Below, piece after piece: positions 2,961-40,159 of a DNA stretch of 40,159 nt. The stretch lies in contig CANQFO010000001.1 of NCBI GenBank assembly GCA_947599755.1, positions 1 through 40,159 of the forward strand, given 5' to 3'. Source of the stretch: an uncultured Bacilli bacterium (GTDB taxonomy: Bacteria; Bacillota_I; Bacilli_A; RF39; UBA660). Numbering within the stretch: the stretch's first letter is position 1; the number at the start of each line of letters is the position of its first letter. The translations under genes were made by a program, and so were the position numbers. The notes under the pieces were generated by a model. That model made no database searches. It saw only the letters and a program-made list of their open reading frames with translations, and was not told the DNA's origin.

Positions 2961-3836
2961 TCAATAAATATTTTTTCTCAACTGCTTTTTTATCAATTTT
3001 GCATGAATAACAATTCGCCCACCTTGATTATTTTGACATGTAGATAACGTCAAAATTTTATCATTTACTCCAACTGTTGTATCAATAGAAGAAATGTTTC
3101 TTTTTTTCATGACATTAAGCCATTTTTTTTTAGTAGCATGATCGATAAAATCAGTTGTTATATAATATTTTTCACTTTGAATAGTATAAATTGAAAATAT
3201 TTGAAATATCATATTTTCTTTTAAAGTAGATAACCATATAACATAATTATCTTTATTATTTTGCCAATTACTGGAAAGCATATCTTTCAAAGAACCAAAC
3301 AAAGTTTTATCAAGTCTACCATGACCATATATTATAGTATTATCGCTCAAACAATCAATATTATTACGATAATCCATAAATATCCAACCTGCATGATTAA
3401 ATTCTCGATAAAAAGAATGATTAAGATAGTATTGATTATCCATCGCTTGAACAACAGGATAATGAATATTAGTATTTTTTATGTGAATAAATGCTACTGT
3501 ATCACTATTTTTAGAAGAAAGAATAGAAAAATTAACTTCATAAAAAGGAAATTTTACATAATACCAATAATTACTATTTAGATCACTATCTGGATTAACA
3601 AATTCTCCTTTATCAATAATTTGATTTAAATGAATATTATCGCTAATTTCCGACTTTATTTTTTTAATATTGGAATTATCTTGAAACCAATGAAATATAT
3701 TATATAGTGAGAAGATAATAATAATAAGACATAATATAAAAAAAATAGAAAATAGTATTGTACTTTTCTTACTTTTATTAAAACTATCAAATGATTGTGT
3801 CTCAAAATATTCTTCTATTTTAATATATTTTTTCAC
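2961..3836 (-). CDS. srtB: Class B sortase
   Basis: N-terminal TM anchor, class-B-type stretch (AFIHIKNTNIHYPVVQAMDNQYYLNH), catalytic His (IIYGHG), TLxTC motif (LTLSTCQ) and downstream Arg (GGRIV). GTG start with GAGGTGA SD. Confidence 0.85.
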   Translation of the reverse strand: MKKYIKIEEYFETQSFDSFNKSKKSTILFSIFFILCLIIIIFSLYNIFHWFQDNSNIKKIKSEISDNIHLNQIIDKGEFVNPDSDLNSNYWYYVKFPFYEVNFSILSSKNSDTVAFIHIKNTNIHYPVVQAMDNQYYLNHSFYREFNHAGWIFMDYRNNIDCLSDNTIIYGHGRLDKTLFGSLKDMLSSNWQNNKDNYVIWLSTLKENMIFQIFSIYTIQSEKYYITTDFIDHATKKKWLNVMKKRNISSIDTTVGVNDKILTLSTCQNNQGGRIVIHAKLIKKQLRKNIY

Positions 3837-18830: not shown

Positions 18831-20390
18831 TTAATATTGATGATAACGTCGATAAATCATAAATAAAATCAGACATCCAATAAGAATTAAGCAAATACCA
18901 ATAATAGAAAAATAAATAGATGCTCTACTAAGAGTATTAGGAATTTGTATTACTTCATCTTTCATCACAACAGATCGAATAGAACTACCATCCACCGTAA
19001 AAGGAATACATTCCTCACTTAAAGCATATCCCTTAGGAGCAATTGTCTCACATAAAGTATAATCCCCATTTGGTAAATACAAATAATGAGGCTTATCGCC
19101 AGATTCAAACTTCCATGTTTTAGTATCATCTTGACGATTAGTAATCACTAAAGTAGCACCAGGAAGCTCTTTAGAATTAGCAATATCAATTTTACTAATT
19201 TTAACAAAATTAGATAGACGAAAACTAGTATTGACAATCTCATAAGGAACATAGCCTAATAAAAGGTTAGCATATTTCTGATACTTATTCCCTCCATAAT
19301 TATTCATAAGATTATTATTGCTTCCTTCACTAGTTACAGAAGAACTAGTAACTCGATATTGGTATCCTTCTAACTTAGTAAAATGACCAAATACATTGAC
19401 AGTAATAGAAGATAAATCCATCTCACGAATATCAGAAGAAATAGGAATATAAATTCGAAAAGAACCAGTAAAATGAGTTGTATCAGTAATTTTTTCTAAA
19501 TTAGAACGAACCAAATAAGCACCATAATGATTAGGATCATTCAATTCTATTGAATAAAACATAAAATTACTTTGATTGCTAGAAACACTAGGAACAATTT
19601 CACTAGTAATAATATATTTTTTTTCTTCATCAATAGTATAAGAAGGATCAACCTGAAGAGGCATCAAGGAAGAAGCTTCTTCTCCCTGATATAAATTAGC
19701 TTGATCAACAAGAGAAAGAATATAATTAAGATAAGAATATCCTTCCTTACTAGCAGCAGAAGAAATTATCTCTCTAACAGTAGAAGAATCAATATTATTT
19801 TGATTAGAAGAATCATAAAAATCACAAGCATGAATAGAATTTCCAGTATCAATACAATAAGAAGAAAGAGTAGTTTGATGTTCATATAAGTAAAGCCACA
19901 AAGCAATTTGAGTAATATATTGTTTAATAGAATTATCAGAAATATATCCATAGTTCAAATCAGAAAAAATACTATGATAAGAATTAGTAGAATTATATCC
20001 ATGAGCTAAAATATATAAAAGACCTTGATCAGAAACAGAAGTAGGATTATCATCCAATAACTCAATTTTTTCAGTATCTTTAGAAAAAGATAAATTTTTC
20101 ATAAGACTATATAAAGGATGAGAATTATCTTCCGTTCGATAATTACTAGGAAAATCAAAATTGTGCAAATAATTTTGGTAATTAGAACTATCTCCTAAAG
20201 AATTACGAATAAAATTAGTAATAGAAGAATAGTTAGGATGAAAATCTTGTTTTGGTAATAAAGAACGATTAATTCCCGTAGAAATAGCATAACTACTTTT
20301 AAAAAAAGTAGAAACGAAGAAGAAAAAGATAAAAAGACCAATCACTAAAAATCCACTGAGTAAAACCATAAATTTCTTATTTTTTATCAT
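18831..20390 (-). CDS. Cell-wall-anchored adhesin with TQxA (thioester-domain-like) N-terminal region and SpaA/Cna-B-type domain
   Basis: ATG at 20390 follows an AGGAGA SD, so the ORF-track extension to 20741 is rejected. Signal/TM MIKNKKFMVLLSGFLVIGLF. GLLYILAHGY then ITQIALW match the TQxA(I/V)W signature. SpaA-like stretch: ELPGATLVITN...LPNGDYTLCETIAPKGYAL. C-terminus: IPNTL, TM helix, RRYHQY. Confidence 0.75.
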   Translation of the reverse strand: MIKNKKFMVLLSGFLVIGLFIFFFFVSTFFKSSYAISTGINRSLLPKQDFHPNYSSITNFIRNSLGDSSNYQNYLHNFDFPSNYRTEDNSHPLYSLMKNLSFSKDTEKIELLDDNPTSVSDQGLLYILAHGYNSTNSYHSIFSDLNYGYISDNSIKQYITQIALWLYLYEHQTTLSSYCIDTGNSIHACDFYDSSNQNNIDSSTVREIISSAASKEGYSYLNYILSLVDQANLYQGEEASSLMPLQVDPSYTIDEEKKYIITSEIVPSVSSNQSNFMFYSIELNDPNHYGAYLVRSNLEKITDTTHFTGSFRIYIPISSDIREMDLSSITVNVFGHFTKLEGYQYRVTSSSVTSEGSNNNLMNNYGGNKYQKYANLLLGYVPYEIVNTSFRLSNFVKISKIDIANSKELPGATLVITNRQDDTKTWKFESGDKPHYLYLPNGDYTLCETIAPKGYALSEECIPFTVDGSSIRSVVMKDEVIQIPNTLSRASIYFSIIGICLILIGCLILFMIYRRYHQY

Positions 20391-24309: not shown

Positions 24310-24330
24310 AAGATATATGTCTAAATTATA

Positions 24331-24360
24331 GGTACTGATTTTTTAAATCAGTACCTTTAC
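24331..24360 (+). terminator. Rho-independent terminator of greA
   Basis: GGTACTGATT / AATCAGTACC perfect 10-bp stem with a short T-rich loop, followed by TTT. Confidence 0.7.
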
Positions 24361-24813
24361 TTTAACAGTAAAAATGAGCAAACCTATATAGAATAAGGAC
24401 TAGCTCATTTTTCATTTGTTGTGTATCAAAGTTTATTTTCTAAAATTTTGTAAATAAATATCATGTTCAATTTTAATACGATTATAGTTCCTTAAAGAAC
24501 CAATAATATAAGAGTTAGAATATTTTTTATCTAAATATTATCTAAAAACATTTAAATAAAAAATTTTGGGAATAATAAAGAAAACATAAAAAATGAAGAA
24601 AATAAAAGAATTTATGCAAATGATCGAGTTAGAGACACTACTGATTTAAAAAATGTAATAATGTTAAATGAAAGACTAAATTTTACTTCCTTATCTTTAA
24701 ACGCAATTTACTTTTTCATTTAACATATTTTTTTTAAAAAAATAAGATTTCCCTTTTCCTTTAATCAAAAATAGAGTATACTAAAAAAGAATAAGATACA
24801 AGGAGAATTGCCT

Positions 24814-26394
24814 ATGATTATTAGAAAACCTTATGCTTTTTTAATCAAACATTTTAAAAAAATACATATTGTTTTATTACTATTATGTGCCTATATTTAT
24901 TATAAAAATATGCAAACAAGTTCTTTCCTAAAAGAATTTTTAAATTTAGGAACATATGATGCTTATTATGAACCAATTAGTAAATACATTCCCTTTTTTG
25001 CTTTAATTCTTCTATTATTAATGATTGGAATAAATATTATCCTAGTAATTTTACTAAAACATAAACAAAAACCATGGAAATTATATTTATTCCCAATAGC
25101 AGTATACTCAATAATGTTCATTACAGATATTATCATTAGAAGTTTCTTCCAAACCTTTACAGGAACATACAAAGTAGCAAGCGTAAGAGCAATGAGAGAC
25201 TTTGTTTATATACTAACAGTAGGACAATTTCCTGTATTTATGATTTTATTAATTAGAATATTAGGAGTAGATTTAAATAAATTTAATTTTAAAGCAGATG
25301 AAGAATATTTAGAATTAGAAAGCAAAGACCAAGAAGAATTAGAAATTAATATTGATTTTGATAAAGAAAGTATGAAAAGAACTTGGAAAAGACTTCTAAG
25401 AAATTCAAATTATGTCTATCAAGAACATAAAAAATTAATTAATACGTTAATCATAATTATCTTAATCATTATCCTAAAAAATACTTATACTTATATTTTT
25501 GTAACCCATAAAGCATATAAACAAGGAGAAAGCTTTAATGCAAATGGTTATACAATTACAATCCATGATGCTTATTATACAGATAAAAACTATACAGGAA
25601 AAATCATTTCTCAAAAAAGTAGTTTTATTATTTTGGACTTAAGTATCAAAAATAACTTAACAAAAAGAACCATTGATTTAAATAAATATCATATTATGAA
25701 TGGAACAAGTAACTATACAACAACATTTCAAACTTATCAAACAGAATTTCAAGATTTTGGAAAAACAGCCAAAAACGAAGAATTAAAAAAAGATCAAACC
25801 CTAAACCTCATTATAATATTTAAAGTAGATAAAAGTTTAAAGAAAAATCGTTTTGTTTTATATTATCAAGAATTACAAAATAGAAGTTCCTATTTAAGAA
25901 AAATAAAATTAAAAGTAAAAGATGTATCAAAAATTGAAAAAGAAAAGGCTAAAAAACTTGGAGAAGATTTAACTTTTACAGTAGAGAAGAAAGAAGAAAC
26001 AATTAGTTTTGATCAGGTATCCATTCTTGATCAAGTTGAATATAGCTATCGGATATGTAACACTGCAGAATGCAATACTTCACAAAAAACACAAAGTGCA
26101 ACTCCAGGTACAAAAATATTAAAAATTGCTTTTGCATCGATAGAATATGAAGGTAAAGATATGATTGACTTTTCAATGAAATATGGTAAAATTAAATACA
26201 TAGATAGTAACAATAAAGAGAAGATAATTCCAATTGAAAATCCAATTCCTAGAACATATTATGGAAAATATTTATATATAAAAGTTCCCCAAGAGATCGA
26301 GCAAGCAAAAGATATTGAGATTATCTATACAGTTAGAAATCATCAATACATATACAGTTTAAATGAGGAAGAAGAAGGAGAAGAGTATGAATAA
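24814..26394 (+). CDS. Polytopic membrane protein with extracellular beta-sandwich (DUF4352-like) domains; first gene of the Tad-like cluster
   Basis: ATG 24814 lies 7 nt after an AGGAGA SD. Several N-terminal TM helices, an acidic linker and another TM precede a pattern typical of DUF4352-like Ig folds (FIILDLSIKNN...LNLIIIFKVDK). The family call is from memory only. Confidence 0.55.
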   Translation: MIIRKPYAFLIKHFKKIHIVLLLLCAYIYYKNMQTSSFLKEFLNLGTYDAYYEPISKYIPFFALILLLLMIGINIILVILLKHKQKPWKLYLFPIAVYSIMFITDIIIRSFFQTFTGTYKVASVRAMRDFVYILTVGQFPVFMILLIRILGVDLNKFNFKADEEYLELESKDQEELEINIDFDKESMKRTWKRLLRNSNYVYQEHKKLINTLIIIILIIILKNTYTYIFVTHKAYKQGESFNANGYTITIHDAYYTDKNYTGKIISQKSSFIILDLSIKNNLTKRTIDLNKYHIMNGTSNYTTTFQTYQTEFQDFGKTAKNEELKKDQTLNLIIIFKVDKSLKKNRFVLYYQELQNRSSYLRKIKLKVKDVSKIEKEKAKKLGEDLTFTVEKKEETISFDQVSILDQVEYSYRICNTAECNTSQKTQSATPGTKILKIAFASIEYEGKDMIDFSMKYGKIKYIDSNNKEKIIPIENPIPRTYYGKYLYIKVPQEIEQAKDIEIIYTVRNHQYIYSLNEEEEGEEYE

Positions 26395-28204
26395 AAAGGT
26401 AAAAAAATATTTAAAAATATTAATAACAATAATAATTGTTGGCTTATTTATCTGGTTTATTATCTTATCACCATGGCTTAAATTTAAAAACTATGAAAAA
26501 CAGATGAAAGAAGCAGGAAAAAGATATTTTGAAATTAATCACTCTGAATTACCGACAGGAAATAGAGTAAAAACAATAACTCTACAAGATTTATATTATA
26601 AATCATATATCAAAGAAGACTTTTATATTCCTTATACAAAAAATGCTTGTTCAATAAAAGATAGTTGGGTAAAAGTAAAAAAAGAAGCAAATGGAGAGTA
26701 TGGATATTATGTATATTTAAAATGTGGAGTCATTTCTTCAAAAATTGATCATGAAGGACCAACAATTACCTTAAATGGAAAAAAAGAAATTACGCTCAAT
26801 AAAGGAGAAAATTATCAAGATGAAGGAATAAAAAGTGTGCGAGATCAAACAGATGGAGAAATGAAAATATCAGATGTAACAATAAAATCTAATGTAAATA
26901 CAAGTGAAGTAGGAATATACAAAGTAACATACACAGCTTTAGATAGTTTAAACAACAAAACACAAATAACAAGAACAATAAAAGTAGTACAACCATTAAA
27001 AAATGCCGTCAAAGAACAAACTCAACAAGCAGATTATTATGTTGGATCAAATCCTAATAATTATATATATTTCTCAGGAATGTTATTTAGAATTGTTGGA
27101 TTAGATGGAGACGATGTCAAAATTATTGCTGATGAAGATATAGCAAATGTAAATTATGAAGGAATAGAAAAATGGTTAGATGATTATTATTATAATCATT
27201 TAACTGAAAAAGCAAAAAAATTAATTGTAAAAAATAAATATTGTAATATGGATTTAACGGATACAACACTAGATACAACAGAATGCACAACTTACACAAA
27301 AGAAAGAAATTTATACATCATTTCAGCAGAAGATATCAATAAAGCTAGTGCAAACGATGGGAATTATTTAAAACCAACAACAATGTCTTGGATTGCTAAT
27401 AAAAAAGATAAAGATAATGCTTATTTAACAAGAGATCGCTTTTATGATGATGCCTATGGAAAAAACTTTATTACAGAAAATATAGAAAATAATTATGGAG
27501 TAAGACCAGTAATTACGATAAAAGGGGATACATTAATTAAAACTGGAGATGGCACAGAAGATAATCCATATACCTTAGGAGAATTTACATATGGAAAGGC
27601 AAACGATTTAATCAATACAAGATATTCTGGTGAATATATTAATTATTCTGGTATGTTATGGAGAATTATTGAAACAGAAAGCGATGGGACAACAAAAATA
27701 ATCTCTAATGAAACACTTAGTGATGATTATGATAAAATTACTGTATTATCAGATGACAATTATGACGATAATACAAAACAATATAATCCAAAAGAAAAAG
27801 GAAATGTTGGATATTATATTAATAATAATGCTGGAGAATATGTAGAAACGAAATATTTTGTCAATCATACCATTGAAGTTCCTATTTATTCCTCAAAGAT
27901 TAAATATAAGGAAGAAACAACAACAAAAAAATACAAAGTAAAATTATCTGCTCCTAATATGTATGAAATGTTTTCTGCATACACTACTCATACTACACAT
28001 ATGGGATTAAAATCCCATTGGTTAATAAACTCTGGAAAAAAAGATAATAGAATAGGAGCAATGACCGATATAGGAGTAATTGTTAATGAACCAATAGGAG
28101 AGTATGATAAGTATGGAATCAGAGTAGTTGCCTATTTAAATAAAAATATAAGCATTAGTAATGGAAAAGGAACGGAAGAAAAACCATATATCATTGCAAA
28201 ATAA
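26387..28204 (+). CDS. Membrane-anchored pilin-head-like protein with Ig-like domain and two tandem GVRPV-type repeat domains
   Basis: ATG 26387 (SD AAGGAGAAG) overlaps the upstream stop by 8 nt. After the N-terminal TM comes a head region colinear with the 642-aa prepilin. An Ig-like segment follows (HEGPTITLNG...YKVTYTALDSLNN). There are two repeats (YFSGMLFRIVG...GVRPVITIKG...EDNPYTL and NYSGMLWRIIE...GIRVVAYLNK...EEKPYII). Confidence 0.6.
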   Translation: MNKKVKKYLKILITIIIVGLFIWFIILSPWLKFKNYEKQMKEAGKRYFEINHSELPTGNRVKTITLQDLYYKSYIKEDFYIPYTKNACSIKDSWVKVKKEANGEYGYYVYLKCGVISSKIDHEGPTITLNGKKEITLNKGENYQDEGIKSVRDQTDGEMKISDVTIKSNVNTSEVGIYKVTYTALDSLNNKTQITRTIKVVQPLKNAVKEQTQQADYYVGSNPNNYIYFSGMLFRIVGLDGDDVKIIADEDIANVNYEGIEKWLDDYYYNHLTEKAKKLIVKNKYCNMDLTDTTLDTTECTTYTKERNLYIISAEDINKASANDGNYLKPTTMSWIANKKDKDNAYLTRDRFYDDAYGKNFITENIENNYGVRPVITIKGDTLIKTGDGTEDNPYTLGEFTYGKANDLINTRYSGEYINYSGMLWRIIETESDGTTKIISNETLSDDYDKITVLSDDNYDDNTKQYNPKEKGNVGYYINNNAGEYVETKYFVNHTIEVPIYSSKIKYKEETTTKKYKVKLSAPNMYEMFSAYTTHTTHMGLKSHWLINSGKKDNRIGAMTDIGVIVNEPIGEYDKYGIRVVAYLNKNISISNGKGTEEKPYIIAK

Positions 28205-28219
28205 GTGTAGGTGGTAAGG

Positions 28220-29047
28220 ATGAAAAAGCGAAGGCGAAATCAAAAAAGAAATATAGATCAGAGAAAAAAAAGATTAATAATCACTTTTTTTCCTCTGATC
28301 CTTTGCTGTATTATCATCCCATTATTTTGGATCAATAAAATAAATTTTAAAACAAAAGAAATTTATCAAGTAGAAAGTAGAATAGAAAAAATAAAAGAAT
28401 TAAAAAAGAAAGATACCGAAGATTATAAAACAATTGGTTGGATAAAAGTTCAAGGAACGAATATTGATATACCTGTAATTGCCTATTTAAATGGAGACTT
28501 ATCTACTGATTTAGAAAATTATGCTTGGAATTTAAATTCAAACGAGAAATTTTATAATAAAATTAATATTAGAGGTCATAATATCTTAAATTTATCTTCT
28601 CAACCAGAAGTAGGATTAAAATATTTTTTAAGGTTTGATGATTTGATGTCTTTTGTTTATTATGATTTTGCAAAAAAAAATAAATATATTCAATATACTG
28701 TAGATGGTAAAGATTATATATATAAAATTTTTTCTGTAGGATTTGAATCAAGTTACTATGTTGATTCATATCATGATGGAAAACATTCGAAGAAAGAATT
28801 AAAAGAATTGATTAAAAGATATAAAGAAATAAGCCTATATCAATATGATATTGATGTAGAAGAAAAAGATAAATTCATTTCTTTGATTACTTGTACAAGA
28901 TTTAATGGATTTAAACAAGATTTTATCGTCAATGCAAGATTAGTAAGAGAAAATGAAAAATTAACTGACTATAGCATAAAAACAACCAAAGAATATAAAG
29001 AGGTAAAAAAAGTTTTGGAAGGTGAGGAAAAAAATGAAAGAGCATAG
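28220..29047 (+). CDS. Divergent sortase (class B-like) embedded in the Tad-like cluster
   Basis: Basic N-terminus plus TM, GWIKVQGTNIDIPVI, catalytic His (NIRGHNILN), Cys motif (ISLITCTRF) and Arg (FIVNARLV). ATG 28220 follows an AGGTGG SD. Confidence 0.7.
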   Translation: MKKRRRNQKRNIDQRKKRLIITFFPLILCCIIIPLFWINKINFKTKEIYQVESRIEKIKELKKKDTEDYKTIGWIKVQGTNIDIPVIAYLNGDLSTDLENYAWNLNSNEKFYNKINIRGHNILNLSSQPEVGLKYFLRFDDLMSFVYYDFAKKNKYIQYTVDGKDYIYKIFSVGFESSYYVDSYHDGKHSKKELKELIKRYKEISLYQYDIDVEEKDKFISLITCTRFNGFKQDFIVNARLVRENEKLTDYSIKTTKEYKEVKKVLEGEEKNERA

Positions 29048-31856
29048 TAAAAAAATAAAAAATGGATGGATTATTTTTATCTTACTATTAGTTTTAATTA
29101 TACCAAATGAAGTAAAAGCAAAAATTGATTGTAATGATCCTGCAGAGTTAATTTCAAAATATAATATCGATATTAATAAAAAGAATAAAAAAAGCACCAA
29201 AAAATATACAATATCGGCATTTTTAGATTCTAGTAGTATTGCTAATCGTTGTAAAAATAAAAAATGCGAATTAGAAATTTCCTTAGAAAATGAAGATGGA
29301 ACTTCAAAATATATTGATACACTAGTATTAGAAAAAGGGGATGAAAAAGATAGAAAAGATTCAGGGGCATTTGAAGTTCAATGGAGGGATGAGGACGGAG
29401 AAAAATACTTTGTTGTGAATATTGTGTTAAAAACAGACAAAGATTGTCCTGGTTTAAAGGTAATTTATAGAGTAAATAAAGCAGGTGATGATACTGTTTC
29501 TATACCATATGGAAATGTTGATTATAGTGATTTAGATGCTAACGATATTAATGAGATGAGTGATGTAAATTGTGATGCTAATGAATTTAATAGAAAATTC
29601 TGTGATGCAAGATTGTTAGCCTTACAACCTATTAATCATGATAAAAGTGGAGATCTTCAATCTGGTAAGGATAAAATGAAAGATACTTCAGTCAATAAAT
29701 TAACGTGTAATTATAATGTTGCATCAAATGAAATCAAAGAGTGGAATACGAATGAAAATGGTGATGATGGATATTACTTGAATAAGCAATATTATTATGC
29801 TAAGTCAACGGTAACTACACAATTAGATGAGCGATATGAATACCATTATGATTCAAAGAATCCAACATACGGTGATCCCTTAACTTGTACTAGAACATGT
29901 GAAGAGGCAGTAACGGTAGAGTATGGGCCTCCAGTAGCAGTAAGAGCAGGTTTGTGTTTTCAATATAAAGTAAAGGTAACTAGTCGAGTAGTTTGTAAGG
30001 TAACAGATAAACCAAAAAAACCAGATAATAATGCTTATAATCTTTGTACGCCAGTTCCACTTTGTACCAATGCTACTCATGATTATGTGAGTAATCAGGC
30101 AGGACCAAATGAGGATTTTGAACAATGTATTCAAAAATGTGATGGTGGAAAATATAGTCAAAAATGTAGTTTGAAGTGTTATCAAGAAGTATATGGAAAG
30201 AAAAATAATCAAAAGACTAAATTAGCCTTGCTAGAAGATGCTAGTGTAAGTCGATTAGCAACAAGTAGCACTTGGAATAGAGAGAAATGTATAGAAGCGA
30301 GTTCCGAAAAAAGAGACCAACTGGGCGGAAACAGTTATGATACAAATTTAGATAATAAAAATGACGGGTTATATTCTTATGGATGTTATTATAGAAATTA
30401 TGATAATGACGGGAATGTTACAAGTATTTCTTATCAGCGGAGTTCTACTATTAAGGAGTGGAACCTTGAAAAAGGTGGAGCAACTTGGTATTGGTATTAT
30501 AACCATAAAAATTATTTAAGCCCTACTCGATATGAACCAGATACTGAAGGAATATATCGACGTGTTATAGGCAGTGGGCACTGTACAGATATATGTTGGT
30601 GGTCAGGATGTGATAATGATCAGCAATATTTAAATAGTGCAGACATAGATTATGATAAAAAAACAAATAAAGAAATATATGCCCATGCTAAATCATCATG
30701 TAGTGCTAAAGCTACATGTAATACAACAACAACAGAATATACGATTGCAGTAAAATATGATACTGAAGATAAAGATGGAAAAGTAACAACAGAAAAAGTA
30801 TATTTCCCATATACCAAAAATCAAAATAGCAAATTTACATTAGGATCAGGAAAAAATTCCGGTGTAGTAAATAATAAAGCAATATTACAATATGATGGAT
30901 GTTATAGAACAAATGAAGCAAATAAGTGGTATATGACAGAATGGACAATTCCAATGACTTGGCAAGATAAGGATTTAGATGCAAATTATGATGGAAATGG
31001 AAATGGTTTAACTCCAAAAGAATATCAATTCTGTATGAAGAGAAATTTAAGAAGTGTAAATACAAAATGGTGGGATTGCTACCAAACATACGCAGCATCC
31101 AATAAAACAGCAGAAGATAGACAAAAACTAACATCTTGCTATAATGCATCTGGTGCTAAAGATTATAAAGATTTTAATAATGGAGATTCAAATGGTTATA
31201 ACATAGAAGCAACAACAAAAGATTTTGGTTACTTTGAGTGGAATTTCAACATTCAATGTTTCTATGCAGCATCAACAAGTTCAGTTAGTAATGATGATTC
31301 ATCTTGCAATTGCATAAACGGAACAGAATCTTGTTGTCCACCAAAAATAGATATAGATAATTGTCCTGGAGAAGATTGTCCACATCCAGATTCATATACG
31401 ATAAGAAGCGTAGAATTAACAGATCTATTCCCAAGTACACAAAATAGAAAAATAGAATATAGAACAACAGAAACAGGAAGACAAGTAGGATTTAACTGGA
31501 CAAGTGATGCAACAATTAATACAAGTAAAAACCCATTTTATGGAAGTTCATATGCAAAAAAACCAAATGATTTAATTACAACAATTCAATCACTTGGAGA
31601 TAGCATTTACACACAAGATGACAAATATTTAGAGTATGAATTCACCTTAACACCTGAAAAATTACAACAGATAAGAAAAGAAACAAGAGATACTTTACAT
31701 GGAGAGTATAGTAATTTTGATTATTGGAAAACTAAAACAACAGTATACAAGAATTTCAATTCATCTTCTAAAGCACAATTTTATACTAGTCCATTAATTA
31801 CTAGCTTAGGTGGTAGAAAAGTAACACCTGGTTGCAATACAAAGGATTGCAAATAG
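29034..31856 (+). CDS. Large secreted cysteine-rich protein (about 940 aa, 37 Cys), function unknown
   Basis: ATG 29034 follows a GGAAGGTGAGG SD and overlaps the sortase gene by 14 nt. Signal peptide ...WIIFILLLVLIIPNEVKA|K. Cys appear in paired patterns (CIQKCDGGKYSQKCSLKC, CNCINGTESCCPP...NCPGEDCP, C-terminal GCNTKDCK). No C-terminal TM or sorting signal. Confidence 0.7.
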   Translation: MKEHSKKIKNGWIIFILLLVLIIPNEVKAKIDCNDPAELISKYNIDINKKNKKSTKKYTISAFLDSSSIANRCKNKKCELEISLENEDGTSKYIDTLVLEKGDEKDRKDSGAFEVQWRDEDGEKYFVVNIVLKTDKDCPGLKVIYRVNKAGDDTVSIPYGNVDYSDLDANDINEMSDVNCDANEFNRKFCDARLLALQPINHDKSGDLQSGKDKMKDTSVNKLTCNYNVASNEIKEWNTNENGDDGYYLNKQYYYAKSTVTTQLDERYEYHYDSKNPTYGDPLTCTRTCEEAVTVEYGPPVAVRAGLCFQYKVKVTSRVVCKVTDKPKKPDNNAYNLCTPVPLCTNATHDYVSNQAGPNEDFEQCIQKCDGGKYSQKCSLKCYQEVYGKKNNQKTKLALLEDASVSRLATSSTWNREKCIEASSEKRDQLGGNSYDTNLDNKNDGLYSYGCYYRNYDNDGNVTSISYQRSSTIKEWNLEKGGATWYWYYNHKNYLSPTRYEPDTEGIYRRVIGSGHCTDICWWSGCDNDQQYLNSADIDYDKKTNKEIYAHAKSSCSAKATCNTTTTEYTIAVKYDTEDKDGKVTTEKVYFPYTKNQNSKFTLGSGKNSGVVNNKAILQYDGCYRTNEANKWYMTEWTIPMTWQDKDLDANYDGNGNGLTPKEYQFCMKRNLRSVNTKWWDCYQTYAASNKTAEDRQKLTSCYNASGAKDYKDFNNGDSNGYNIEATTKDFGYFEWNFNIQCFYAASTSSVSNDDSSCNCINGTESCCPPKIDIDNCPGEDCPHPDSYTIRSVELTDLFPSTQNRKIEYRTTETGRQVGFNWTSDATINTSKNPFYGSSYAKKPNDLITTIQSLGDSIYTQDDKYLEYEFTLTPEKLQQIRKETRDTLHGEYSNFDYWKTKTTVYKNFNSSSKAQFYTSPLITSLGGRKVTPGCNTKDCK

Positions 31857-31871
31857 AAGGAGGAAATAAAA

Positions 31872-32303
31872 ATGAATAAAGGAATGTTAACAGTAGGAAT
31901 TATTATACTAGCAGTGATTGCATTAGCTCTAATTAACTTTATTACTGGATTTTCAAATGGTAGTGAATTAGATTACTACCTAGTAAAAGAAACAACAGAA
32001 GCGGCTATGGAAGATGCACTAGATATGGAATTTTACAGTGAAAATTATCTTTATCGAATGGATAAAGAAAAATTTGTAGAAAGTTTCCTTCGTCGCTTTG
32101 CAGATAGCGTTGATAGAACGCGTACATATAAAGTAGCTTTTTATGCAATAAACGAAGTTCCTCCCAAAGTAAGTGTTAAAGTAGATTCACAAACTTCATT
32201 AAGTTTTTCTGGAGAAACAGCAAATATTAGCACAAATTATGATGCAATTCTTGAAGCAGATTATAAAAATGATATCTATGCCAAAGCAGAATTCAACAAA
32301 TAA
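31872..32303 (+). CDS. Small N-terminally anchored protein, possible pseudopilin/TadE-F-like component
   Basis: SD GAAGGAGG. The N-terminus MNKG-MLTVGIIILAVIALALINF (short polar leader, Gly, hydrophobic helix) precedes a ~110-aa soluble domain. It lies immediately upstream of cpaB. Confidence 0.4.
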   Translation: MNKGMLTVGIIILAVIALALINFITGFSNGSELDYYLVKETTEAAMEDALDMEFYSENYLYRMDKEKFVESFLRRFADSVDRTRTYKVAFYAINEVPPKVSVKVDSQTSLSFSGETANISTNYDAILEADYKNDIYAKAEFNK

Positions 32304-32336
32304 AAGAAAAAATGAAAAAAGAAAGGAAGGGATAAA

Positions 32337-33143
32337 ATGGGGAATGCAACCAATGGAATAAAAAAATTTTTATCCAATAAAAACACAGTGACAGTACTCG
32401 GTGTAATAGTAGCAATTGCAATATTATATATTGGTTATAATGTACGTGTACGATCAGCAATCAATCCAGTTAATGTACCATATGCCAGAGTACAAATTAA
32501 TGCAGGAGAACAAATCACATCAGATATGGTAGGAGTAAAACAAATTCCACCCTCAATGTTAGAAGGAGATGTATTAGTAAATCAAGGAGATATTATTGAT
32601 AAATATAGTAATATTGATACAGCAATACCAGAAGGAAGTTTATTTTACAAAAGAGCAGTGGTAGAAAGAGATCAACTACCAGATAGTATTATATTAGATT
32701 ATCCTAAAGGTTACGTTTTATATAATATGGCCGTAGATACAGAAAGTACATATGGTAATTCAGTATTTCCTGGAAACTATATTGATATTTATCTAAAAGC
32801 AGTCAATAAAATAGAAGAAGGAACTGCCTTAAATGCAGATGCAAATAAAATTATGTTAGGAAAATTAGTATCTAACGTAAAAGTAATTGCCGTAAAAGAT
32901 GCCTCAGGACAAGCAGTATTTTCAAATGTAGATGAACAAAGAACACCGGCAATGGTTGTTTTTGCAGTACCAGAAGAATATTATATTTTATTAAAAAAAG
33001 CAGAATTTTTAAGAACATATGATTCAACATTAATTCCAGTTCCAACAAATGAAAGCTTAAAAGATGAGCCAGGAGAATTAGCAATTACCAGTGAACAATT
33101 AAAAGACTGGATTAATGCAGTTACTGTTTGGACAGAAACATAA
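32337..33143 (+). CDS. cpaB: Flp pilus assembly protein CpaB/RcpC-like (SAF domain)
   Basis: N-terminal TM, SAF-type segment (VPYARVQINAGEQITSDMVGVKQIPPSML) and an RcpC-like C-terminal region (VKVIAVKD...). Positioned directly before the Tad ATPase. Confidence 0.7.
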   Translation: MGNATNGIKKFLSNKNTVTVLGVIVAIAILYIGYNVRVRSAINPVNVPYARVQINAGEQITSDMVGVKQIPPSMLEGDVLVNQGDIIDKYSNIDTAIPEGSLFYKRAVVERDQLPDSIILDYPKGYVLYNMAVDTESTYGNSVFPGNYIDIYLKAVNKIEEGTALNADANKIMLGKLVSNVKVIAVKDASGQAVFSNVDEQRTPAMVVFAVPEEYYILLKKAEFLRTYDSTLIPVPTNESLKDEPGELAITSEQLKDWINAVTVWTET

Positions 33144-33173
33144 ACGATAAAAGATAAAAGGGTGTGAAAAAAA

Positions 33174-34658
33174 GTGACAGAAAGTATCTTTGATAAACTC
33201 GATTTTGGACCATTTCGTTCCTTATTAGATAACGATGATATAACCGATATCTCTTATGACAATAACGGACAAATTTGGATTCGTTCACTAACACAGGGAT
33301 CAATGAGAGTAGAAGTAGAAGGAGCAACACCAGAATTTGTAGAAAAATTAGCATTTCAATGCTCCAATGTAATGGGAACAACATTTAATAATGCCAAACC
33401 ATTTCTAGATGCAGAATCAGCAGAATTACGATTAAACTTTGTTCATCCTTCGATTGCAACCAATGGAATTGCTCTAGTAATTCGTAAAACTCCAGCTAAA
33501 ATCAGACTAGAAAAAGAAAAATTATTAAAAGAAGATTATTTCACACAAGATATTCATGATTTATTAATTAAATGTGTGGAAGGACATTGTAATGTTATTG
33601 TTTGTGGAGAAACTGGTTCAGGAAAAACAGAATTTGTAAAATACCTAGCAAGCCATACCAAAACTAATGAAAAAATTATTACCATAGAAGATACTTTGGA
33701 ACTACACTTAGATAAAATTTTTCCTCAAAGAGATATAGTCGCAATGAAAACAAATAACGTTGCAAGTTATACAGATGTTTTAGTAACATGTATGCGTCAA
33801 AATCCAAAATGGATTTTATTATCCGAAGTACGTAGTGCAGAAGCAGTATCAGCAGTAAGAAATTCAATCTCATCAGGACACAATATTTTATCAACCATTC
33901 ATGCTGATAAAGCATCCGCAATACCATATCGTTTATATAGTTTGATGGAAACTGATCTAGATGTAAATCAATTTTTAACAACCATTTATCGATATATCCA
34001 ATTAGGAGTGCATATAAAAGCATATTATAGTAAAAAATATGGAAAATTTCATCGTGAAATAGATGAAGTAACAGAATTTTATGTAGATGACAATAATAAA
34101 CCACAATCTAGAATCATTTATCAAAAAATCTTTGGAAAAGAACCCATCATGAGAAAACCAAGTCCCCATTTATTAGAATATTTAGAAAATCAAAATATAG
34201 ATGTTTCAAATATTATTTCAGAATTACCAGATGAAATGCCTCTTACTGAAATAGATCCAGAATTAAAACAGTCAGAACAAGAAGGAAAAATTGAAACATC
34301 CCAAATGCAAAATGCAAACTTACCAGAAGAAATAAAAATTCAACCCCCACAACCAGTAGAAATAAAAAATCAAATGCTAGAAGAGAGTAAAAATGATCAA
34401 ACACAAATTCAGACAAATAATATTCAACAAGAAAATATTGCTACCACAACTACTCCAAATGTAGATATTCAATCAATACCAAAAGAACAACAAATTATAC
34501 AACAACCAATTTTAACCCCACAGGTAGAATTACCACCTATACAAACGAATCCGATTGCTCAACAACCAGTCATACAGCAACCAATATTGCAACCTAATCA
34601 ACAAGAAATGCAAACAACAGCACCAATACAAAAACTATCAGAACAAAATCAAGGATAG
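33174..34658 (+). CDS. tadA: Tad/CpaF-type secretion ATPase (T2SS-E/VirB11 superfamily) with Q/P/I-rich C-terminal extension
   Basis: Walker A (VCGETGSGKTE), Asp box (IITIEDTLEL), Walker B (WILLSEVRSAEA) and His box (SGHNILSTIHA). GTG start. The last ~140 aa are low complexity (IQQPILTPQVELPPIQTNPIAQQPVIQQPILQPNQQ). Confidence 0.9.
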   Translation: MTESIFDKLDFGPFRSLLDNDDITDISYDNNGQIWIRSLTQGSMRVEVEGATPEFVEKLAFQCSNVMGTTFNNAKPFLDAESAELRLNFVHPSIATNGIALVIRKTPAKIRLEKEKLLKEDYFTQDIHDLLIKCVEGHCNVIVCGETGSGKTEFVKYLASHTKTNEKIITIEDTLELHLDKIFPQRDIVAMKTNNVASYTDVLVTCMRQNPKWILLSEVRSAEAVSAVRNSISSGHNILSTIHADKASAIPYRLYSLMETDLDVNQFLTTIYRYIQLGVHIKAYYSKKYGKFHREIDEVTEFYVDDNNKPQSRIIYQKIFGKEPIMRKPSPHLLEYLENQNIDVSNIISELPDEMPLTEIDPELKQSEQEGKIETSQMQNANLPEEIKIQPPQPVEIKNQMLEESKNDQTQIQTNNIQQENIATTTTPNVDIQSIPKEQQIIQQPILTPQVELPPIQTNPIAQQPVIQQPILQPNQQEMQTTAPIQKLSEQNQG

Positions 34659-34672
34659 AAAGGAGTGAATAT

Positions 34673-36366: not shown

Positions 36367-36430
36367 ATCACAAAAATTTAAGTAAATAAACATATAGAGT
36401 GTACAATATAGAAAAAAAATATAAAAAATA

Positions 36431-36459
36431 TTGATAAAAAAAAATAAATTTGGTACAAT
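36431..36459 (+). promoter_or_regulatory. Internal sigma-A promoter in front of the pilin-like ORF (TTGATA-17 nt-TACAAT, extended -10 TGg)
   Basis: TTGATA at 36431-36436, 17-nt spacer ending in TGG, TACAAT at 36454-36459, then the AGGAAAGGA SD and ATG 36493. Confidence 0.5.
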
Positions 36460-36492
36460 AAAAATAAGATTAGGAAAGGATGTGAAAAAGCA

Positions 36493-36666
36493 ATGAAAGC
36501 AGCATCAGGAGAATTAAATTTGACAGTAATTACAATAATCGCAGTTACTGCTGTACTTACATTTTTTATGACATTTTTATGGCCACGTGTTAAAGATACG
36601 ATAAACAATGGTTGGGATAATATTGAAAATGTTCCAGATCAAGATCAAAGAGGCTCAGGGCGTTAG
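36493..36666 (+). CDS. 57-aa Flp/Tad-type pilin-like protein (absent from the supplied ORF track)
   Basis: Hand translation gives MKAASGELNLTVITIIAVTAVLTFFMTFLWPRVKDTINNGWDNIENVPDQDQRGSGR* with TAG at 36664-36666. It has a short polar leader ending in Gly, a ~22-aa hydrophobic helix and a short polar tail. It has its own promoter and SD and sits between tadC and the tadE-like gene. Confidence 0.55.
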   Translation: MKAASGELNLTVITIIAVTAVLTFFMTFLWPRVKDTINNGWDNIENVPDQDQRGSGR

Positions 36667-36684
36667 TTAAGAAGGTGGAGCTAA

Positions 36685-37167
36685 ATGAATGAGGCAACAG
36701 GAGGAGTAATCAGTTTAACAATGATTGCAGTATTTATTGCAATCATATCTGGTTATTTAGCATTTAATGTTAGTTACATGAAAGCATTTCGAACCAAAAA
36801 TAGGATTATATCTTATTTTGAAGAATATGAAGGAAACTGTCTAGATCAAAATACAGATTGTGCCAAAAAAATCAAGCAATATATGCATGATACTGGGTAT
36901 AATGTAGCAGGAGATGCCTTAAATCGGAGCCTAATAAATAGTTATAATTTACCACAAACACAAGAATATGGTTGTGTTGATGATGGATATTGTTGGATTA
37001 AGACACCTGTTTCAGGATCTAATCCAAATACCAAAGGAATGGGAAAAGCTACATTTAAAATTATAACAGCAATCAACATTGATATACCAATAATTAATAA
37101 AATATTGCCAAGATTAAAAATATTTCATGTATCAGGAGATACAAAACAAATTGTTTTACGATCTTAA
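36685..37167 (+). CDS. TadE/pseudopilin-like protein
   Basis: SD GAAGGTGGAG. The N-terminus MNEATGG-VISLTMIAVFIAIISGYLAF is TadE-like (polar leader, Gly, hydrophobic helix). The small Cys-containing globular domain has 4 Cys. Confidence 0.45.
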   Translation: MNEATGGVISLTMIAVFIAIISGYLAFNVSYMKAFRTKNRIISYFEEYEGNCLDQNTDCAKKIKQYMHDTGYNVAGDALNRSLINSYNLPQTQEYGCVDDGYCWIKTPVSGSNPNTKGMGKATFKIITAINIDIPIINKILPRLKIFHVSGDTKQIVLRS

Positions 37168-37184
37168 GATTAAGGTGATGAAAA

Positions 37185-38231
37185 GTGAATGTAATTGTTG
37201 CAAATGAAAAGCAAAATCTATTATCTAATTTAGATATTGATATTATTAAAAGTATTTCTGGTTCATATGATACAAATGAAATAATAGAAATGTTTAAAAA
37301 CTTTTTTTATAGTAGAATGATTTTAGATGTAACTGCATTAAAAGATTATAGTAATGTAGAAACTTATAAAAAATTAAAAAATGGATTAGATGTAGAAAAA
37401 ATTATTTTCTTTTTACCAGAAGGAAGTAAAATATGTACATCTAATTTTTTAGCACAATTAATTTCCATAGGAATATATAATTTTACCACTAATATTGAGG
37501 GAATTAAATATTTATTAAAAAAGCCAAATACATACAAAGATGTAGAACATATTGAAAAATTAGGAATGGCATCTTCAGAAAATACAGTAGGAAATTTTTC
37601 AACAAATCAACCTAATCAATCTAATCAACCTAACCAATCATCCAATCAATCAATAGGAAGAAAAAATCGAATAATAGGATTTAGAAACGTAACTGAACAT
37701 GCTGGTGCAACAACACTAATTTATATGTTAAAGAAAGAATTAGCAAAAGAATTAGGAGAAAAAGTAGTAGGAATAGAAGTAAATTCCAGAGATTTTCAAG
37801 TTTTTAATGATAAAAATTTAATTTCAACTACTCAAGCAGAATTAAAAAATACAATAGCAAATCAAAAAAATGCTCAAATTATTTTGGTTGATCTAAACAA
37901 TGATACAGATGATGCAGTATGCCAAGAAATCATTTATTTAATTGAACCAAGTATTATTAAATTAAATAAATTAATTCGAAAAAACAAAATGATATTTTCC
38001 AAAATAAAAGGAAAAAGAGTGATGTTAAATAAAAGTTTATTATCAAATAAAGATGTCAATGATTTTGAATATGAAGCAGGATTCAAAGTATTTTACAATA
38101 TGCCACCCTTAGATGATAGAAAACAAAATGCAATAATCAATGATTTCTTATCAAGAATTGGTTTATTAAATCAACCAATAGGCGAAAAAAAAGATAATTC
38201 TAATAAAATATTTGGATTGTTTAGGCGCTAA
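37185..38231 (+). CDS. tadZ: TadZ/CpaE-like protein (receiver-like N-domain plus ParA/MinD-like domain with degenerate P-loop)
   Basis: GTG start with AAGGTGA SD. An N-terminal ~130 aa flavodoxin-like segment and an N/Q/S/P linker precede IIGFRNVTEHAGATTLIYMLKKELAK. That segment occupies the place of the deviant Walker A (GGxGxTT) but lacks the signature Lys residues. Confidence 0.5.
   Translation: MNVIVANEKQNLLSNLDIDIIKSISGSYDTNEIIEMFKNFFYSRMILDVTALKDYSNVETYKKLKNGLDVEKIIFFLPEGSKICTSNFLAQLISIGIYNFTTNIEGIKYLLKKPNTYKDVEHIEKLGMASSENTVGNFSTNQPNQSNQPNQSSNQSIGRKNRIIGFRNVTEHAGATTLIYMLKKELAKELGEKVVGIEVNSRDFQVFNDKNLISTTQAELKNTIANQKNAQIILVDLNNDTDDAVCQEIIYLIEPSIIKLNKLIRKNKMIFSKIKGKRVMLNKSLLSNKDVNDFEYEAGFKVFYNMPPLDDRKQNAIINDFLSRIGLLNQPIGEKKDNSNKIFGLFRR
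37605..37652 (+). repeat. Imperfect 9-nt tandem repeat (AATCAACCT-like) encoding an NQPNQSNQPNQSSNQS linker inside the tadZ-like gene
   Basis: Direct reading gives aatcaacct aatcaatct aatcaacct aaccaatca tccaatcaatca. Confidence 0.6.
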
Positions 38232-38288
38232 TAATTGACAAAAAAAAAGATATAAGGTATGATAGAGATATCGAAGGAGAGGTTATTT

Positions 38289-38633
38289 ATGTCAAATTTA
38301 TTTCAAATTGGAGCAGATTTAGATAGTTGTGGAGGACTATTACCAATTGTAAGAGTATTAAAAAAAGGAGTAATGCCAGTTGTTCAAATTGTTATTCCAA
38401 TCCTTTTAATTGTTTTCGCAACAGTTGATTTAGGAAAAGCAGTTATTTCTAGTGAAGAAAAAGAAGTAAAAGCAGCCCAAGGAAGATTAATTAAAAGATT
38501 TATTTATGCAGCAGCAATTTTCTTTGTAGTATCTCTTGTAACAGTAGTAATGAATTTAGTATCAAAAGGTGGAGAAGGAGATACAGAAAGCTGGAAAAAC
38601 TGTTGGGCCTCTGCATATATAGTAGAAAAATAA
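38289..38633 (+). CDS. Free-standing two-TM small membrane protein (third copy of the module fused to the two hydrolases); VirB2/T4SS-pilin-like topology
   Basis: ATG 38289 follows an AAGGAGAGG SD, so the ORF-track 38259 extension is rejected. The sequence is colinear with the N-termini of the 14096 and 15183 proteins: LFQI..., Cys-Gly, amphipathic helix, TM1 VQIVIPILLIVF, SSEEKE loop, TM2 and a C-terminal CW. Confidence 0.6.
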   Translation: MSNLFQIGADLDSCGGLLPIVRVLKKGVMPVVQIVIPILLIVFATVDLGKAVISSEEKEVKAAQGRLIKRFIYAAAIFFVVSLVTVVMNLVSKGGEGDTESWKNCWASAYIVEK

Positions 38634-38643
38634 AAAAGGTAAA

Positions 38644-38675
38644 AATAGTAAAGGAACAATTGCTATTTTTTTTTT
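38644..38675 (+). terminator. Rho-independent terminator after the small two-TM gene
   Basis: AATAGTAA / TTGCTATT 8-bp stem (one G-U pair) with a 7-8 nt loop, followed by roughly 9-10 consecutive T residues. Confidence 0.5.
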
Positions 38676-38814
38676 ATTTTGCTATAATAAATATGATAGA
38701 ATAGAAAAAGTATCGAAAATAAAACAGAAAAAACTAGTAAAAAGAAAAATATATGATATAATATAGAACAAAAACGTGCAAACAATAGGTGATAAGGTTA
38801 AGAGGTGATATTTG

Positions 38815-40159
38815 ATGAATGACAATTCTTCTGCAGGAATTAAAAACGATTTAATTAGAACCTTATGCTCTTGGGTATTAGATAGACCTGCTTTTGCACT
38901 ATTAGGAATAATTTTTAAAATTTTCTTCAATGTAGCAACAGTAGAAATCTTTTCAAACAGTACAATCAAAAACTTTTATAATCGAGTTCAATTAATTATT
39001 GGAGTTTTTATGTTATTTTTCCTTGCCTTAAAGTTTTTACAAGGAATCATGAATCCTGATAAATTTGTGGATAAACAAAGTGGATTTGGTTCAGTGATTA
39101 CAAGAATTATCATTGCCCTAGTAATGCTTGTTGCATTAGTACCAATTAATATTCCAAATGCTCAAACAGAATATGAAATAGAACTAAATAATAATGGATT
39201 ATTATTTGGAACTCTTTATTCCTTGCAAAATCGTCTCTTATCGAATAATACTTTAGGAAGATTAATCTTAGGAACCAATGATAGTGGAGTAACAGATTCC
39301 GTATCACAAGGAGAAAAATTGCAACAATCAACCAATATATTTACAAGTACAATTTTAAAAGCATTTGTAAGGATTAATTTAAAAGAAAAAATTATAAGAG
39401 AAGCAGATGGAAAAGATCCAGAAATGTTTAATGAAAACAGAATGTGTGAAGATATTGATGATGAAATATTAGACGTATATACTAAAGTAGATGCAAGTCC
39501 AAGTGAAATTTTAGATATCATTAATATTAGTTGTACCCAAGCAAACTCAGGAGGATTAATTGCCTGGGCAAAAGACAAATGGACAAGACTTTGGGGAGAT
39601 GATCGATATGTATTTGCTTATATACCAATACTACCAATGATAACTGCCTTAGCATTTTCCTTTATTATTCTAGGATTTATTATTGATATTGTAGTTCGTT
39701 CAGTAAAATTAGCAGTATTAAGATTAATTGCTCCAATTCCCATTATTTCATATGTCGATCCAAAATCTTCAAAAGACGGAGCTTTTGCTTCATGGGTAAA
39801 AGCACTAACCTCTACCTACGCAGACTTATTTATTCGGTTAGCCCTAATTTACTTTGTTTTATTCTTAATGATGGATATGATAACAAATGGAATTATCATT
39901 AATAATGGAAGTGGTATAGTAGGAGCACTATCTTGGGTTTTCATTTTCTTAGGCTTATTCTTCTTCCTAAGAATGGCACCTAAATTCATCAAAGACATAT
40001 TAGGATTAAAAGGAAATATGACAAATATTGGACTTTCTGCTATGTTAGGTGGAACAGCTGCATTAATCGGTGGTGCAGGAGTAAAAGGAGCATTAGCCGC
40101 TAGTATGAATGCAGCAGATACACAAACTATGGCCTATAATCAAGGAAAACAAGCACCAG
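38815..40159 (+). CDS. Polytopic membrane protein, VirB6/TrbL-like; 5' partial view, runs off the window end (absent from the ORF track)
   Basis: ATG 38815 lies 7 nt after an AAGAGGTGA SD. By hand translation, 448 codons are open to the window end. Multiple TM helices surround a ~200-aa extracytoplasmic loop. The central segment VRSVKLAVLRLIAPIPIISYVDPK...WVKALTSTYADLFIRLALIYF and the Gly/Ala-rich tail resemble TrbL/VirB6-type conjugal channel proteins. Confidence 0.55.
   Translation, partial: MNDNSSAGIKNDLIRTLCSWVLDRPAFALLGIIFKIFFNVATVEIFSNSTIKNFYNRVQLIIGVFMLFFLALKFLQGIMNPDKFVDKQSGFGSVITRIIIALVMLVALVPINIPNAQTEYEIELNNNGLLFGTLYSLQNRLLSNNTLGRLILGTNDSGVTDSVSQGEKLQQSTNIFTSTILKAFVRINLKEKIIREADGKDPEMFNENRMCEDIDDEILDVYTKVDASPSEILDIINISCTQANSGGLIAWAKDKWTRLWGDDRYVFAYIPILPMITALAFSFIILGFIIDIVVRSVKLAVLRLIAPIPIISYVDPKSSKDGAFASWVKALTSTYADLFIRLALIYFVLFLMMDMITNGIIINNGSGIVGALSWVFIFLGLFFFLRMAPKFIKDILGLKGNMTNIGLSAMLGGTAALIGGAGVKGALAASMNAADTQTMAYNQGKQAP

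Follow-up and report, generated by a model that had tools for sequence, protein, structure and literature searches.

Class B sortases are the closest described relatives of the enzyme analyzed here; they include SrtB of Staphylococcus aureus and Bacillus anthracis and the SrtB enzymes of Clostridium perfringens and Clostridioides difficile (PDB 5b23 and 5gyj). Pilus-polymerising members are Spy0129 of Streptococcus pyogenes (3psq) and SrtG1 of the type II pilus of Streptococcus pneumoniae (4y4q), which are encoded inside appendage clusters. Tad/Flp (type IVc) pili are specified by loci such as tad of Bifidobacterium breve, and we know of no Tad locus that contains a sortase. In titles and abstracts of reviews and of Bifidobacterium papers, sortase-dependent and Tad pili are listed as distinct structures. 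For Roseburia, Ruminococcus and Eubacterium, Miller et al. (2022, PMC9523054) predicted a DUF5411-CpaF-PilC operon; the word sortase is absent from that paper, which was the only one retrieved in a literature search on DUF5411. In full-text literature searches, no paper was found that connects sortases with Tad or type IV filament loci. The stretch of DNA analyzed here, called the window, comprises 40,159 nucleotides (nt) of contig CANQFO010000001.1 from an uncultured Bacilli bacterium (assembly GCA_947599755.1). It carries a gene for a predicted class B-like sortase within a cluster of genes of the type IV filament and type IV secretion system (T4SS) kind, and the same arrangement was found throughout the clade.

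The gene under study is the following:

28220..29047, plus strand: sortase gene, 275 amino acids (aa), with a transmembrane (TM) helix, a class B-like catalytic domain and a C-terminal extension

The coordinates of the open reading frame (ORF) were borne out, with an ATG at 28220 behind GGTGG/AGG and a TAG stop codon at 29045-29047, in a window with a G+C content of about 26%. The protein matched Pfam Sortase (PF04203, peptidase C60) over the whole profile (1-125 of 125) with 31.0 bits, above the gathering score of 26.6. Class B was the sole NCBIfam sortase model that responded, and the score of 47.3 bits did not reach the cut-off of 153.75 for this SrtB equivalog (TIGR03064). Searches of the PDB sequences retrieved SrtB enzymes only, both with the single sequence (best match 5b23 of C. 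perfringens, E 3e-11) and with the family profile (C. difficile SrtB at E 3e-18). The AlphaFold2 (AF2) model, which was based on an alignment of 43 family members, had a mean predicted local distance difference test score (pLDDT) of 85.9. Its comparison with the PDB by Foldseek gave 118 matches at E<=0.001; all 50 matches listed were sortases, the top 19 were all class B sortases, and the best was again 5b23 (E 5e-13, template modelling score 0.78 on the target). The sequence-only reading had called the protein a divergent class B-like sortase, and this assignment was supported: the Pfam threshold was passed, the SrtB equivalog score stayed far below its cut-off, and the PDB matches were SrtB enzymes.

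The N-terminus MKKRRRNQKRNIDQRKKR is very basic, and a hydrophobic TM helix comes next, at about residues 19-41; the AF2 model has an N-terminal helix at 7-41, which would be the membrane anchor, and then the barrel. From the positive-inside rule we infer that the catalytic domain faces the outside. The C-terminal extension of about 35 aa is family-specific and forms a strand and a helix at 253-267 in the model. In a collection of 5.8 billion proteins 394 relatives were found at E<=0.001; among the 120 matches listed the identity was 44-60%, and the few named ones were 'class B sortase' entries of metagenome-assembled genomes of Bacilli or Firmicutes. In common with known class B sortases, the protein has the fold, the N-terminal anchor, the TC motif that contains the catalytic Cys, and an Arg on the next strand. 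It differs from them in its low equivalog score, in a GHNxxNLSxxP segment and in the C-terminal extension, and it has neither an adjacent NPxTx or (S/P)PxTG substrate nor an isd-type or pilin context. Judged from sequence and model, the product is a divergent sortase-fold cysteine transpeptidase that forms its own subfamily near class B, and it is apparently active.

The conservation of residues was counted in 80 orthologues from 78 loci, which had 32-53% identity to the window protein. Neither H120 of the GHN motif nor C225 of the TC motif varied in any of the 80, and further invariant residues were N121, N124, P129, T224, W74 and W103. R240 (in NARLV) was an Arg in 71 of the sequences and a Lys in the other nine. 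Selection on the active site is seen in the invariance of H120 and C225 despite the divergence of the proteins. The sequence-only reading had named the same three residues as the catalytic triad. In the HMMER alignment to solved SrtB enzymes the Cys and the Arg coincided column for column, but the His was 7 positions off. In the AF2 model H120 comes directly after strand 114-119, which is taken as the equivalent of the sortase strand beta-4 that ends in the catalytic His, and because of this position the His of GHN is read as the putative catalytic residue. The GHNxxNLSxxP segment after the His is invariant and family-specific, and its location beside the modelled active site hints at an altered specificity.

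The genes around the sortase have the order g1, g2, sortase, g4, DUF5411, CpaB, ATPase, and the cluster contains the following features:

24814..26394, plus strand: g1, with which the cluster starts; polytopic membrane protein that has an extracellular domain and a weak DUF4352 match
26387..28204, plus strand: g2, N-terminally anchored surface protein of 605 aa with Bact_surface_Ig-like and DUF6273 domains
29034..31856, plus strand: g4, Cys-rich secreted protein of 940 aa without an anchor, Sec signal ending in EVKA before K
31872..32303, plus strand: DUF5411 protein, 143 aa, pilin-like, N-terminally anchored
32337-33143, plus strand: CpaB/RcpC-like protein with an RcpC Pfam match and an SAF domain
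33174-34658, plus strand: ATPase of the FlaI/CpaF/VirB11 clade, T2SSE 97.5 bits
34673-35575 and 35575-36366, plus strand: two conserved membrane proteins
36493..40158, plus strand: downstream genes for a 57-aa pilin-like, a 160-aa pilin-like, a 348-aa, a VirB2-like 124-aa and a TrbL/VirB6-like protein, the last of which continues past the window end

The neighbors were as the sequence-only reading had described them, i.e., an Ig-like/DUF6273 protein upstream and the 940-aa Cys-rich secreted protein downstream. The ATG of g4 at 29034 lies behind GGTGAGG, which results in an overlap of 14 nt with the end of the sortase gene. The only terminator-like site on the plus strand in the region 24.2-38.8 kb was the one after greA (24330-24356); none was found from 24356 to 38800, and this fits one long operon. 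A search for RNA evidence retrieved the window sequence from DNA runs only, all of a rabbit gut metagenome. The location inside an appendage cluster is a feature that the sortase shares with Spy0129 and SrtG1, which were also among its structural matches (ranks 4 and 18). In contrast, the clusters of these two enzymes encode pilins with sorting signals and Lys motifs, and no ATPase motor, whereas the appendage genes of the window are of the type IV filament/T4SS kind and include no sorting signal.

A scan seeded with DUF5411, and not with the sortase, was performed in a one-genome-per-species collection, and the best 78 loci of 230 stretches encoding a relative were analyzed. Of the 75 species loci with sufficient flank, all 75 have a sortase gene, located some 3.7 kb upstream of DUF5411, and the three loci without it end within 1.2 kb of DUF5411. 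An overlapping g4 ORF followed 78 of the 79 sortase ORFs, always in the identical frame relation. Three contexts were examined directly and had the same gene order, including the upstream housekeeping genes U32-U32-HD-greA. The loci belong to uncultured small-genome gut Bacilli, e.g., 'Mycoplasma sp. CAG:877', 'Candidatus Faecimonas' (Bacilli incertae sedis in the NCBI taxonomy), 'uncultured Tenericutes/Mycoplasmatota' and 'Bacilli bacterium', which we take to be lineages of the GTDB order RF39. A sister lineage (four loci, three of them distinct, since L082 and L083 share one DUF5411 protein) has kept the order g1, g2, sortase, g4, DUF5411, CpaB, ATPase. Its neighborhood differs, with cdsA-rseP and a divergent thioredoxin, its DUF5411 proteins are longer (560-740 aa), and its sortase and g4 genes are adjacent without an overlap. 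The co-occurrence of the sortase with the Tad-like genes was thus strict in its lineage, and the observation was confirmed as far more than a peculiarity of one genome.

At the head of the sister-lineage cluster (L082 1817-2245, L084 96-509, L085 1915-2328) a divergently placed gene with a PedC-like thioredoxin fold was seen; it may serve the formation of disulfides in the Cys-rich giant protein.

The trio of sortase, g4 and DUF5411 was found duplicated without g1 and g2 in locus L026, and the two parts of a locus that was split in the assembly (L011 and L013) probably also hold a duplicated trio. L031 has a second copy of g4 and DUF5411. Altogether, the surface half of the cluster is plastic (L008, L021, L050, L066, L026, L031, L011+L013), with two or three CpaB paralogues, an additional g4 paralogue of 1268 aa, or a second set of sortase, g4 and DUF5411. 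The sortase (mean distance 0.83), g4 (1.06), g1 and g2 evolve fast, and the motor proteins evolve slowly (0.23-0.29). Judged from this gene-level evidence, the sortase appears to be a fixed component in the surface half of this chromosomal cluster in the clade, and it is predicted to be translated in tandem with g4.

The sequence-only reading had placed the sortase in a Tad-type pilus operon, and while the embedding and the overlap stood, the label was backed in part only. With Tad/Flp loci the window shares a CpaB-like protein, small pilin-like proteins and the arrangement in a same-strand cluster, and it has a putative CpaF-clade ATPase and two membrane proteins as possible further counterparts. 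The RcpC match of the CpaB-like protein just passed the Pfam gathering score (29.5 versus 28.8 bits), and the protein stayed below the cut-off of the NCBIfam CpaB model (32.6 versus 71). The scores of the ATPase with the equivalog models (VirB11 116.7, TadA-family 105.1, FlaI 94.1) all remained below the cut-offs, and its PDB matches to FlaI, CpaF and VirB11 were about equally good. The two membrane proteins resemble TadB and TadC by size, position and topology only; they had no Pfam T2SSF match, and a PDB profile search retrieved nothing. A match to an A24 prepilin peptidase or TadV was not found among the cluster proteins. The 57-aa pilin-like protein begins with MKAASGELNLTV, which reads MKAATGELNLTV in most orthologues, and does not have the G/XXXXEY site of Flp pilins. 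Further differences from Tad/Flp loci are the VirB2- and VirB6-like genes that follow. 'Tad-type' is therefore a reasonable but loose label, and 'Tad-like / T4SS-associated' is the safer name, because CpaB is borderline, the ATPase ambiguous, the membrane proteins unmatched and the peptidase missing, and because VirB2/VirB6-like genes are present. The idea that the sortase stands in for the missing prepilin peptidase was rejected on the basis of topology, since the short leaders would be on the cytoplasmic side and the sortase domain outside.

The 78 loci and the window were scanned, ORF by ORF, for proteins with a C-terminal TM segment and a basic tail. None was detected in the loci or in the cluster, and adjacent pilin genes with a sorting signal and a Lys pilin motif, as known from pilus-specific sortases, were not found. 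The extracellular proteins of the cluster are all N-terminally anchored, with the exception of the free g4. The earlier statement that the neighbors have no C-terminal sorting signal was therefore correct for both the Ig-like/DUF6273 protein g2 and the 940-aa g4. The leading explanation, to which we give about an even chance, is that the sortase is dedicated to the machine of the cluster and acts on a protein of the locus via a non-canonical signal; the substrate, the motif, the acceptor and the activity are all predictions. The enzyme would capture a surface protein of the locus by a signal without a TM segment or basic tail, most likely g4 and in the second place g2, and would fix it covalently to peptidoglycan of the meso-diaminopimelate (m-DAP) type or to a membrane-anchored pilin-like partner, e.g., DUF5411. 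Such a link would keep the otherwise anchorless giant protein on the cell or on the filament. Wall anchoring and tip-adhesin ligation by the sortase, both proposed by the sequence-only reading, are hypothetical roles.

The protein g4 is the first candidate because of its conserved overlap with the sortase gene, the duplication of the trio without g1 and g2, and a C-terminal motif. It consists of a variable N-terminal part of about 250 aa and a conserved core, and it has invariant Cys residues. Of 75 orthologues, 59 had the motif G-x-[LP]-G-[CV]-N-N, at a distance of 1-38 residues (median 11) to the C-terminal end, and CNN was found in the sister lineage. No Pfam match was obtained, and the AF2 model was poor (pLDDT 62) and had no fold match. 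A role of g4 as thioester adhesin was not supported by these results, and the hhalign probability against the thioester protein of plasmid pLS20 was 0.2%. The C-terminus of g2 has the pattern G-x-G-T-x-x-x-P-Y-x-I-x-K and ends with GKGTEEKPYIIAK; G-x-G-T-x-x-x-P-Y-x-[IV] is kept in both sortase-bearing lineages. A mirror-tree test was applied to choose the partner of the sortase and was not discriminating.

Several observations weigh against a dedicated sortase with g4 or g2 as substrate. The catalytic Arg is replaced by Lys in nine of the 80 sequences, and relatives of the machine operate without any sortase. The g4 motif is missing in about 16 of the 75 orthologues and reads GCNT in the window, where the protein ends with VTPGCNTKDCK. 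Cys-loop C-termini like that of g4 occur also in the giant proteins of sortase-less loci, and the last roughly 150 residues of g4 are common to some of them. In addition, g4 has no TM retention signal, which to our knowledge is present in all known sortase substrates. The end of g2 corresponds to a motif that is common at domain ends, and sortase-less loci also encode g2-like proteins of shorter length. Lastly, the partial correlations of the mirror-tree test do not single out g4 (g2 0.54, g11 0.51, g1 0.46, g4 0.42).

The scan retrieved two sorting-signal proteins, both in the window at a distance of 8-24 kb from the sortase, and a second sortase of the same genome is encoded next to one of them:

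2961..3836, minus strand: canonical class B sortase, the second in the genome, 138 bits to B. anthracis SrtB
3921-4592 (ORF 3795-4592), plus strand: presumptive substrate, secreted protein of 223 aa that ends with EDNPNTS, a TM segment and KKIFN, head to head with the canonical SrtB gene
18831..20390, minus strand: IPNTL adhesin with a SpaA/CnaB-type domain, a weak thioester domain, a TM segment and an RRYHQY tail

These proteins bear on a second explanation, which we rate as rather unlikely, namely that the sortase is a general-purpose enzyme that resides in the locus and anchors canonical sorting-signal proteins encoded elsewhere, e.g., the IPNTL adhesin, and that it came to lie in the cluster since such adhesins and the cluster share a contact function. 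The adhesin, 8 kb away, is indeed a canonical substrate, and no sortase gene lies next to it; public records name the gene 'class B sortase', and the triad and the fold are ordinary. A literature search on RF39 and sortases retrieved only a survey, which reports srtA/B-type genes and the m-DAP peptidoglycan pathway as general traits of RF39 (PMC10868615). However, in the 78 related loci, in which the sortase is universal, the adhesin did not turn up within 10 kb of it, and the proposal of the sequence-only reading that the adhesin is the substrate was not supported. The canonical SrtB is the simpler candidate enzyme for it, because the adhesin shares the PNT core with the NPNTS protein and was not found near the sortase in other species. 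The conserved overlap with g4 and the duplication of the trio indicate a local partner, and the score far below the SrtB equivalog cut-off also speaks against a general-purpose enzyme. For the dedicated sortase, the presence of a canonical SrtB with an adjacent NPNTS substrate in the same genome counts as support, as it suggests a division of labor.

Two further observations were made in this part of the window. In the region 16858-20390 (minus strand), a 642-aa protein encoded beside the IPNTL adhesin begins with a classical type IV prepilin sequence (KGFTLVELLVAIAI, Pfam N_methyl), and g2 has a weak BLAST similarity to it (E 0.07 over 86 aa). The region 4953-8938 contains two adjacent ORFs (567 and 760 aa) that by eye look like a DNA methyltransferase and a helicase-type restriction subunit, i.e., a type III-like restriction-modification pair.

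A special form of the dedicated function, which we regard as improbable, is that the sortase joins g4 (or g2) to a pilin-like, membrane-anchored component of the type IV filament-like machine, e.g., DUF5411, via a C-terminal signal without a TM segment and tail. DUF5411 is a wide family, for which a profile search of 1.84 billion representatives yielded 583 clusters. In other lineages it is often an N-terminal pilin-like module with long, adhesin-like C-terminal extensions, and it is short in the lineage of the window. Representatives P0251-P0390 carry 200-1500 aa of fused adhesin-type domains (Big_2, Listeria-Bacteroides repeat, ALK/LTK Gly-rich). It was considered whether these extensions are g4 fused in cis. 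The g4 profile matched none of 150 DUF5411 representatives, the extensions are Big_2, Flg_new or Gly-rich, and a long DUF5411 and a separate g4 coexist in the sister lineage, so that this idea was rejected. Since the PPKVS of DUF5411 is conserved to the same degree in sortase-less lineages, it is not a sortase-linked motif, and its reading as an (S/P)PxTG-like signal or as a pilin motif was rejected.

More distant relatives of the machine were found in metagenomes, and the sortase was absent from all 24 of their DUF5411/CpaB/ATPase loci with at least 5.5 kb of upstream sequence. A distant lineage with the leader 'MKESFWGY' retains g1, a giant secreted protein, DUF5411, CpaB, the ATPase, the two membrane proteins and the pilin-like and VirB2-like genes, and it probably represents the operon predicted by Miller et al. 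(PMC9523054). Among plasmids, the best matches to the window ATPase were pLS20-type Bacillus plasmids (34.8% identity, gene annotated tadA). The tadA region of pLS20 contains no sortase, and the ATPase alone matched the family profiles of the cluster. In pLS20 (L166 6477-12586) a thioester-domain adhesin, which has a signal peptide but lacks a sorting signal, is encoded before the ATPase, and two membrane-protein genes of window-like size come after the ATPase gene. In a tblastn search of 72,556 plasmids, no relatives were found for the sortase, DUF5411 and the TadB-like protein. Like the window, the DUF5411-CpaF-PilC operon and pLS20 represent the combination of DUF5411, CpaB, ATPase, two membrane proteins and pilin-like genes with a giant secreted protein just upstream; unlike it, they have no sortase, and instead a protein of 215 aa (p215, metagenome relatives) or the thioester adhesin (pLS20). 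Given its absence from the 24 loci and pLS20, the sortase is a lineage-specific, fixed add-on of one clade, which the core machine does not need. The sequence-only reading had taken absence from otherwise orthologous Tad loci to count against its idea; such absence was found for the distant relatives and not inside the clade.

In the sortase-less relatives, which also have g1, p215 stands between g1 and the giant protein, at the position at which the lineage of the window has g2 and the sortase. It is a tail-anchored protein with a signal peptide and conserved Cys residues, the anchor being a C-terminal TM segment. The p215 family (L094 6200-6883, L095 6525-7160 and 39 more metagenome loci) has four invariant Cys, an acidic linker and a basic tail after the C-terminal TM segment, and its gene always lies directly before that of the giant protein. 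That p215 is a degenerate sortase was ruled out by an hhalign probability of 0.7%.

This positional swap is one of the points in favor of a third explanation, i.e., that the sortase fold is used without transpeptidation, either by a maturation protease that trims a protein of the locus (e.g., the g4 tail after NN) or by a tether that holds g4 via the reactive Cys, and that it does the job of p215. Neither an acceptor nor a canonical signal is evident in the loci, R240 is not strictly conserved, and the g4 tails after NN are short and variable (1-38 aa), all of which would agree with this. However, the invariant His and Cys and the near-invariant Arg are expected of a working transpeptidase, and p215 is unrelated to sortases, so that the idea of a common job rests on the position only. 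In addition, we know of no precedent for a sortase fold used without transpeptidation, and we consider this explanation quite unlikely. That the sortase is a passenger, inserted once in the ancestor of the clade and kept by linkage without a functional tie, would agree with its absence from the distant relatives, but is very improbable in view of its retention in every locus examined, at sequence identities as low as 32% and across two lineages whose neighborhoods differ, with a conserved overlap and invariant active-site residues.

Taken together, surface display by sortases and the machines of type IV filaments or secretion count as separate Gram-positive toolkits, and here a sortase subfamily is hard-wired into such a machine, and co-translated with it, across a clade. 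The clade with the built-in sortase consists of abundant, uncultured, genome-reduced gut bacteria, and the locus contains no normal substrate. If the ligation of g4 or g2 to a pilin-like component were true, the structure would be a hybrid of two Gram-positive pilus principles, with a sortase isopeptide link on an ATPase-driven filament, and it would involve a new kind of sortase recognition signal. If the sortase is dedicated to the machine, it would have a new specificity and possibly be useful as a ligation tool, and it would explain the attachment of an anchorless surface protein of 900-1100 aa. In that case it would also give a handle on how these auxotrophic organisms contact their hosts or other cells.

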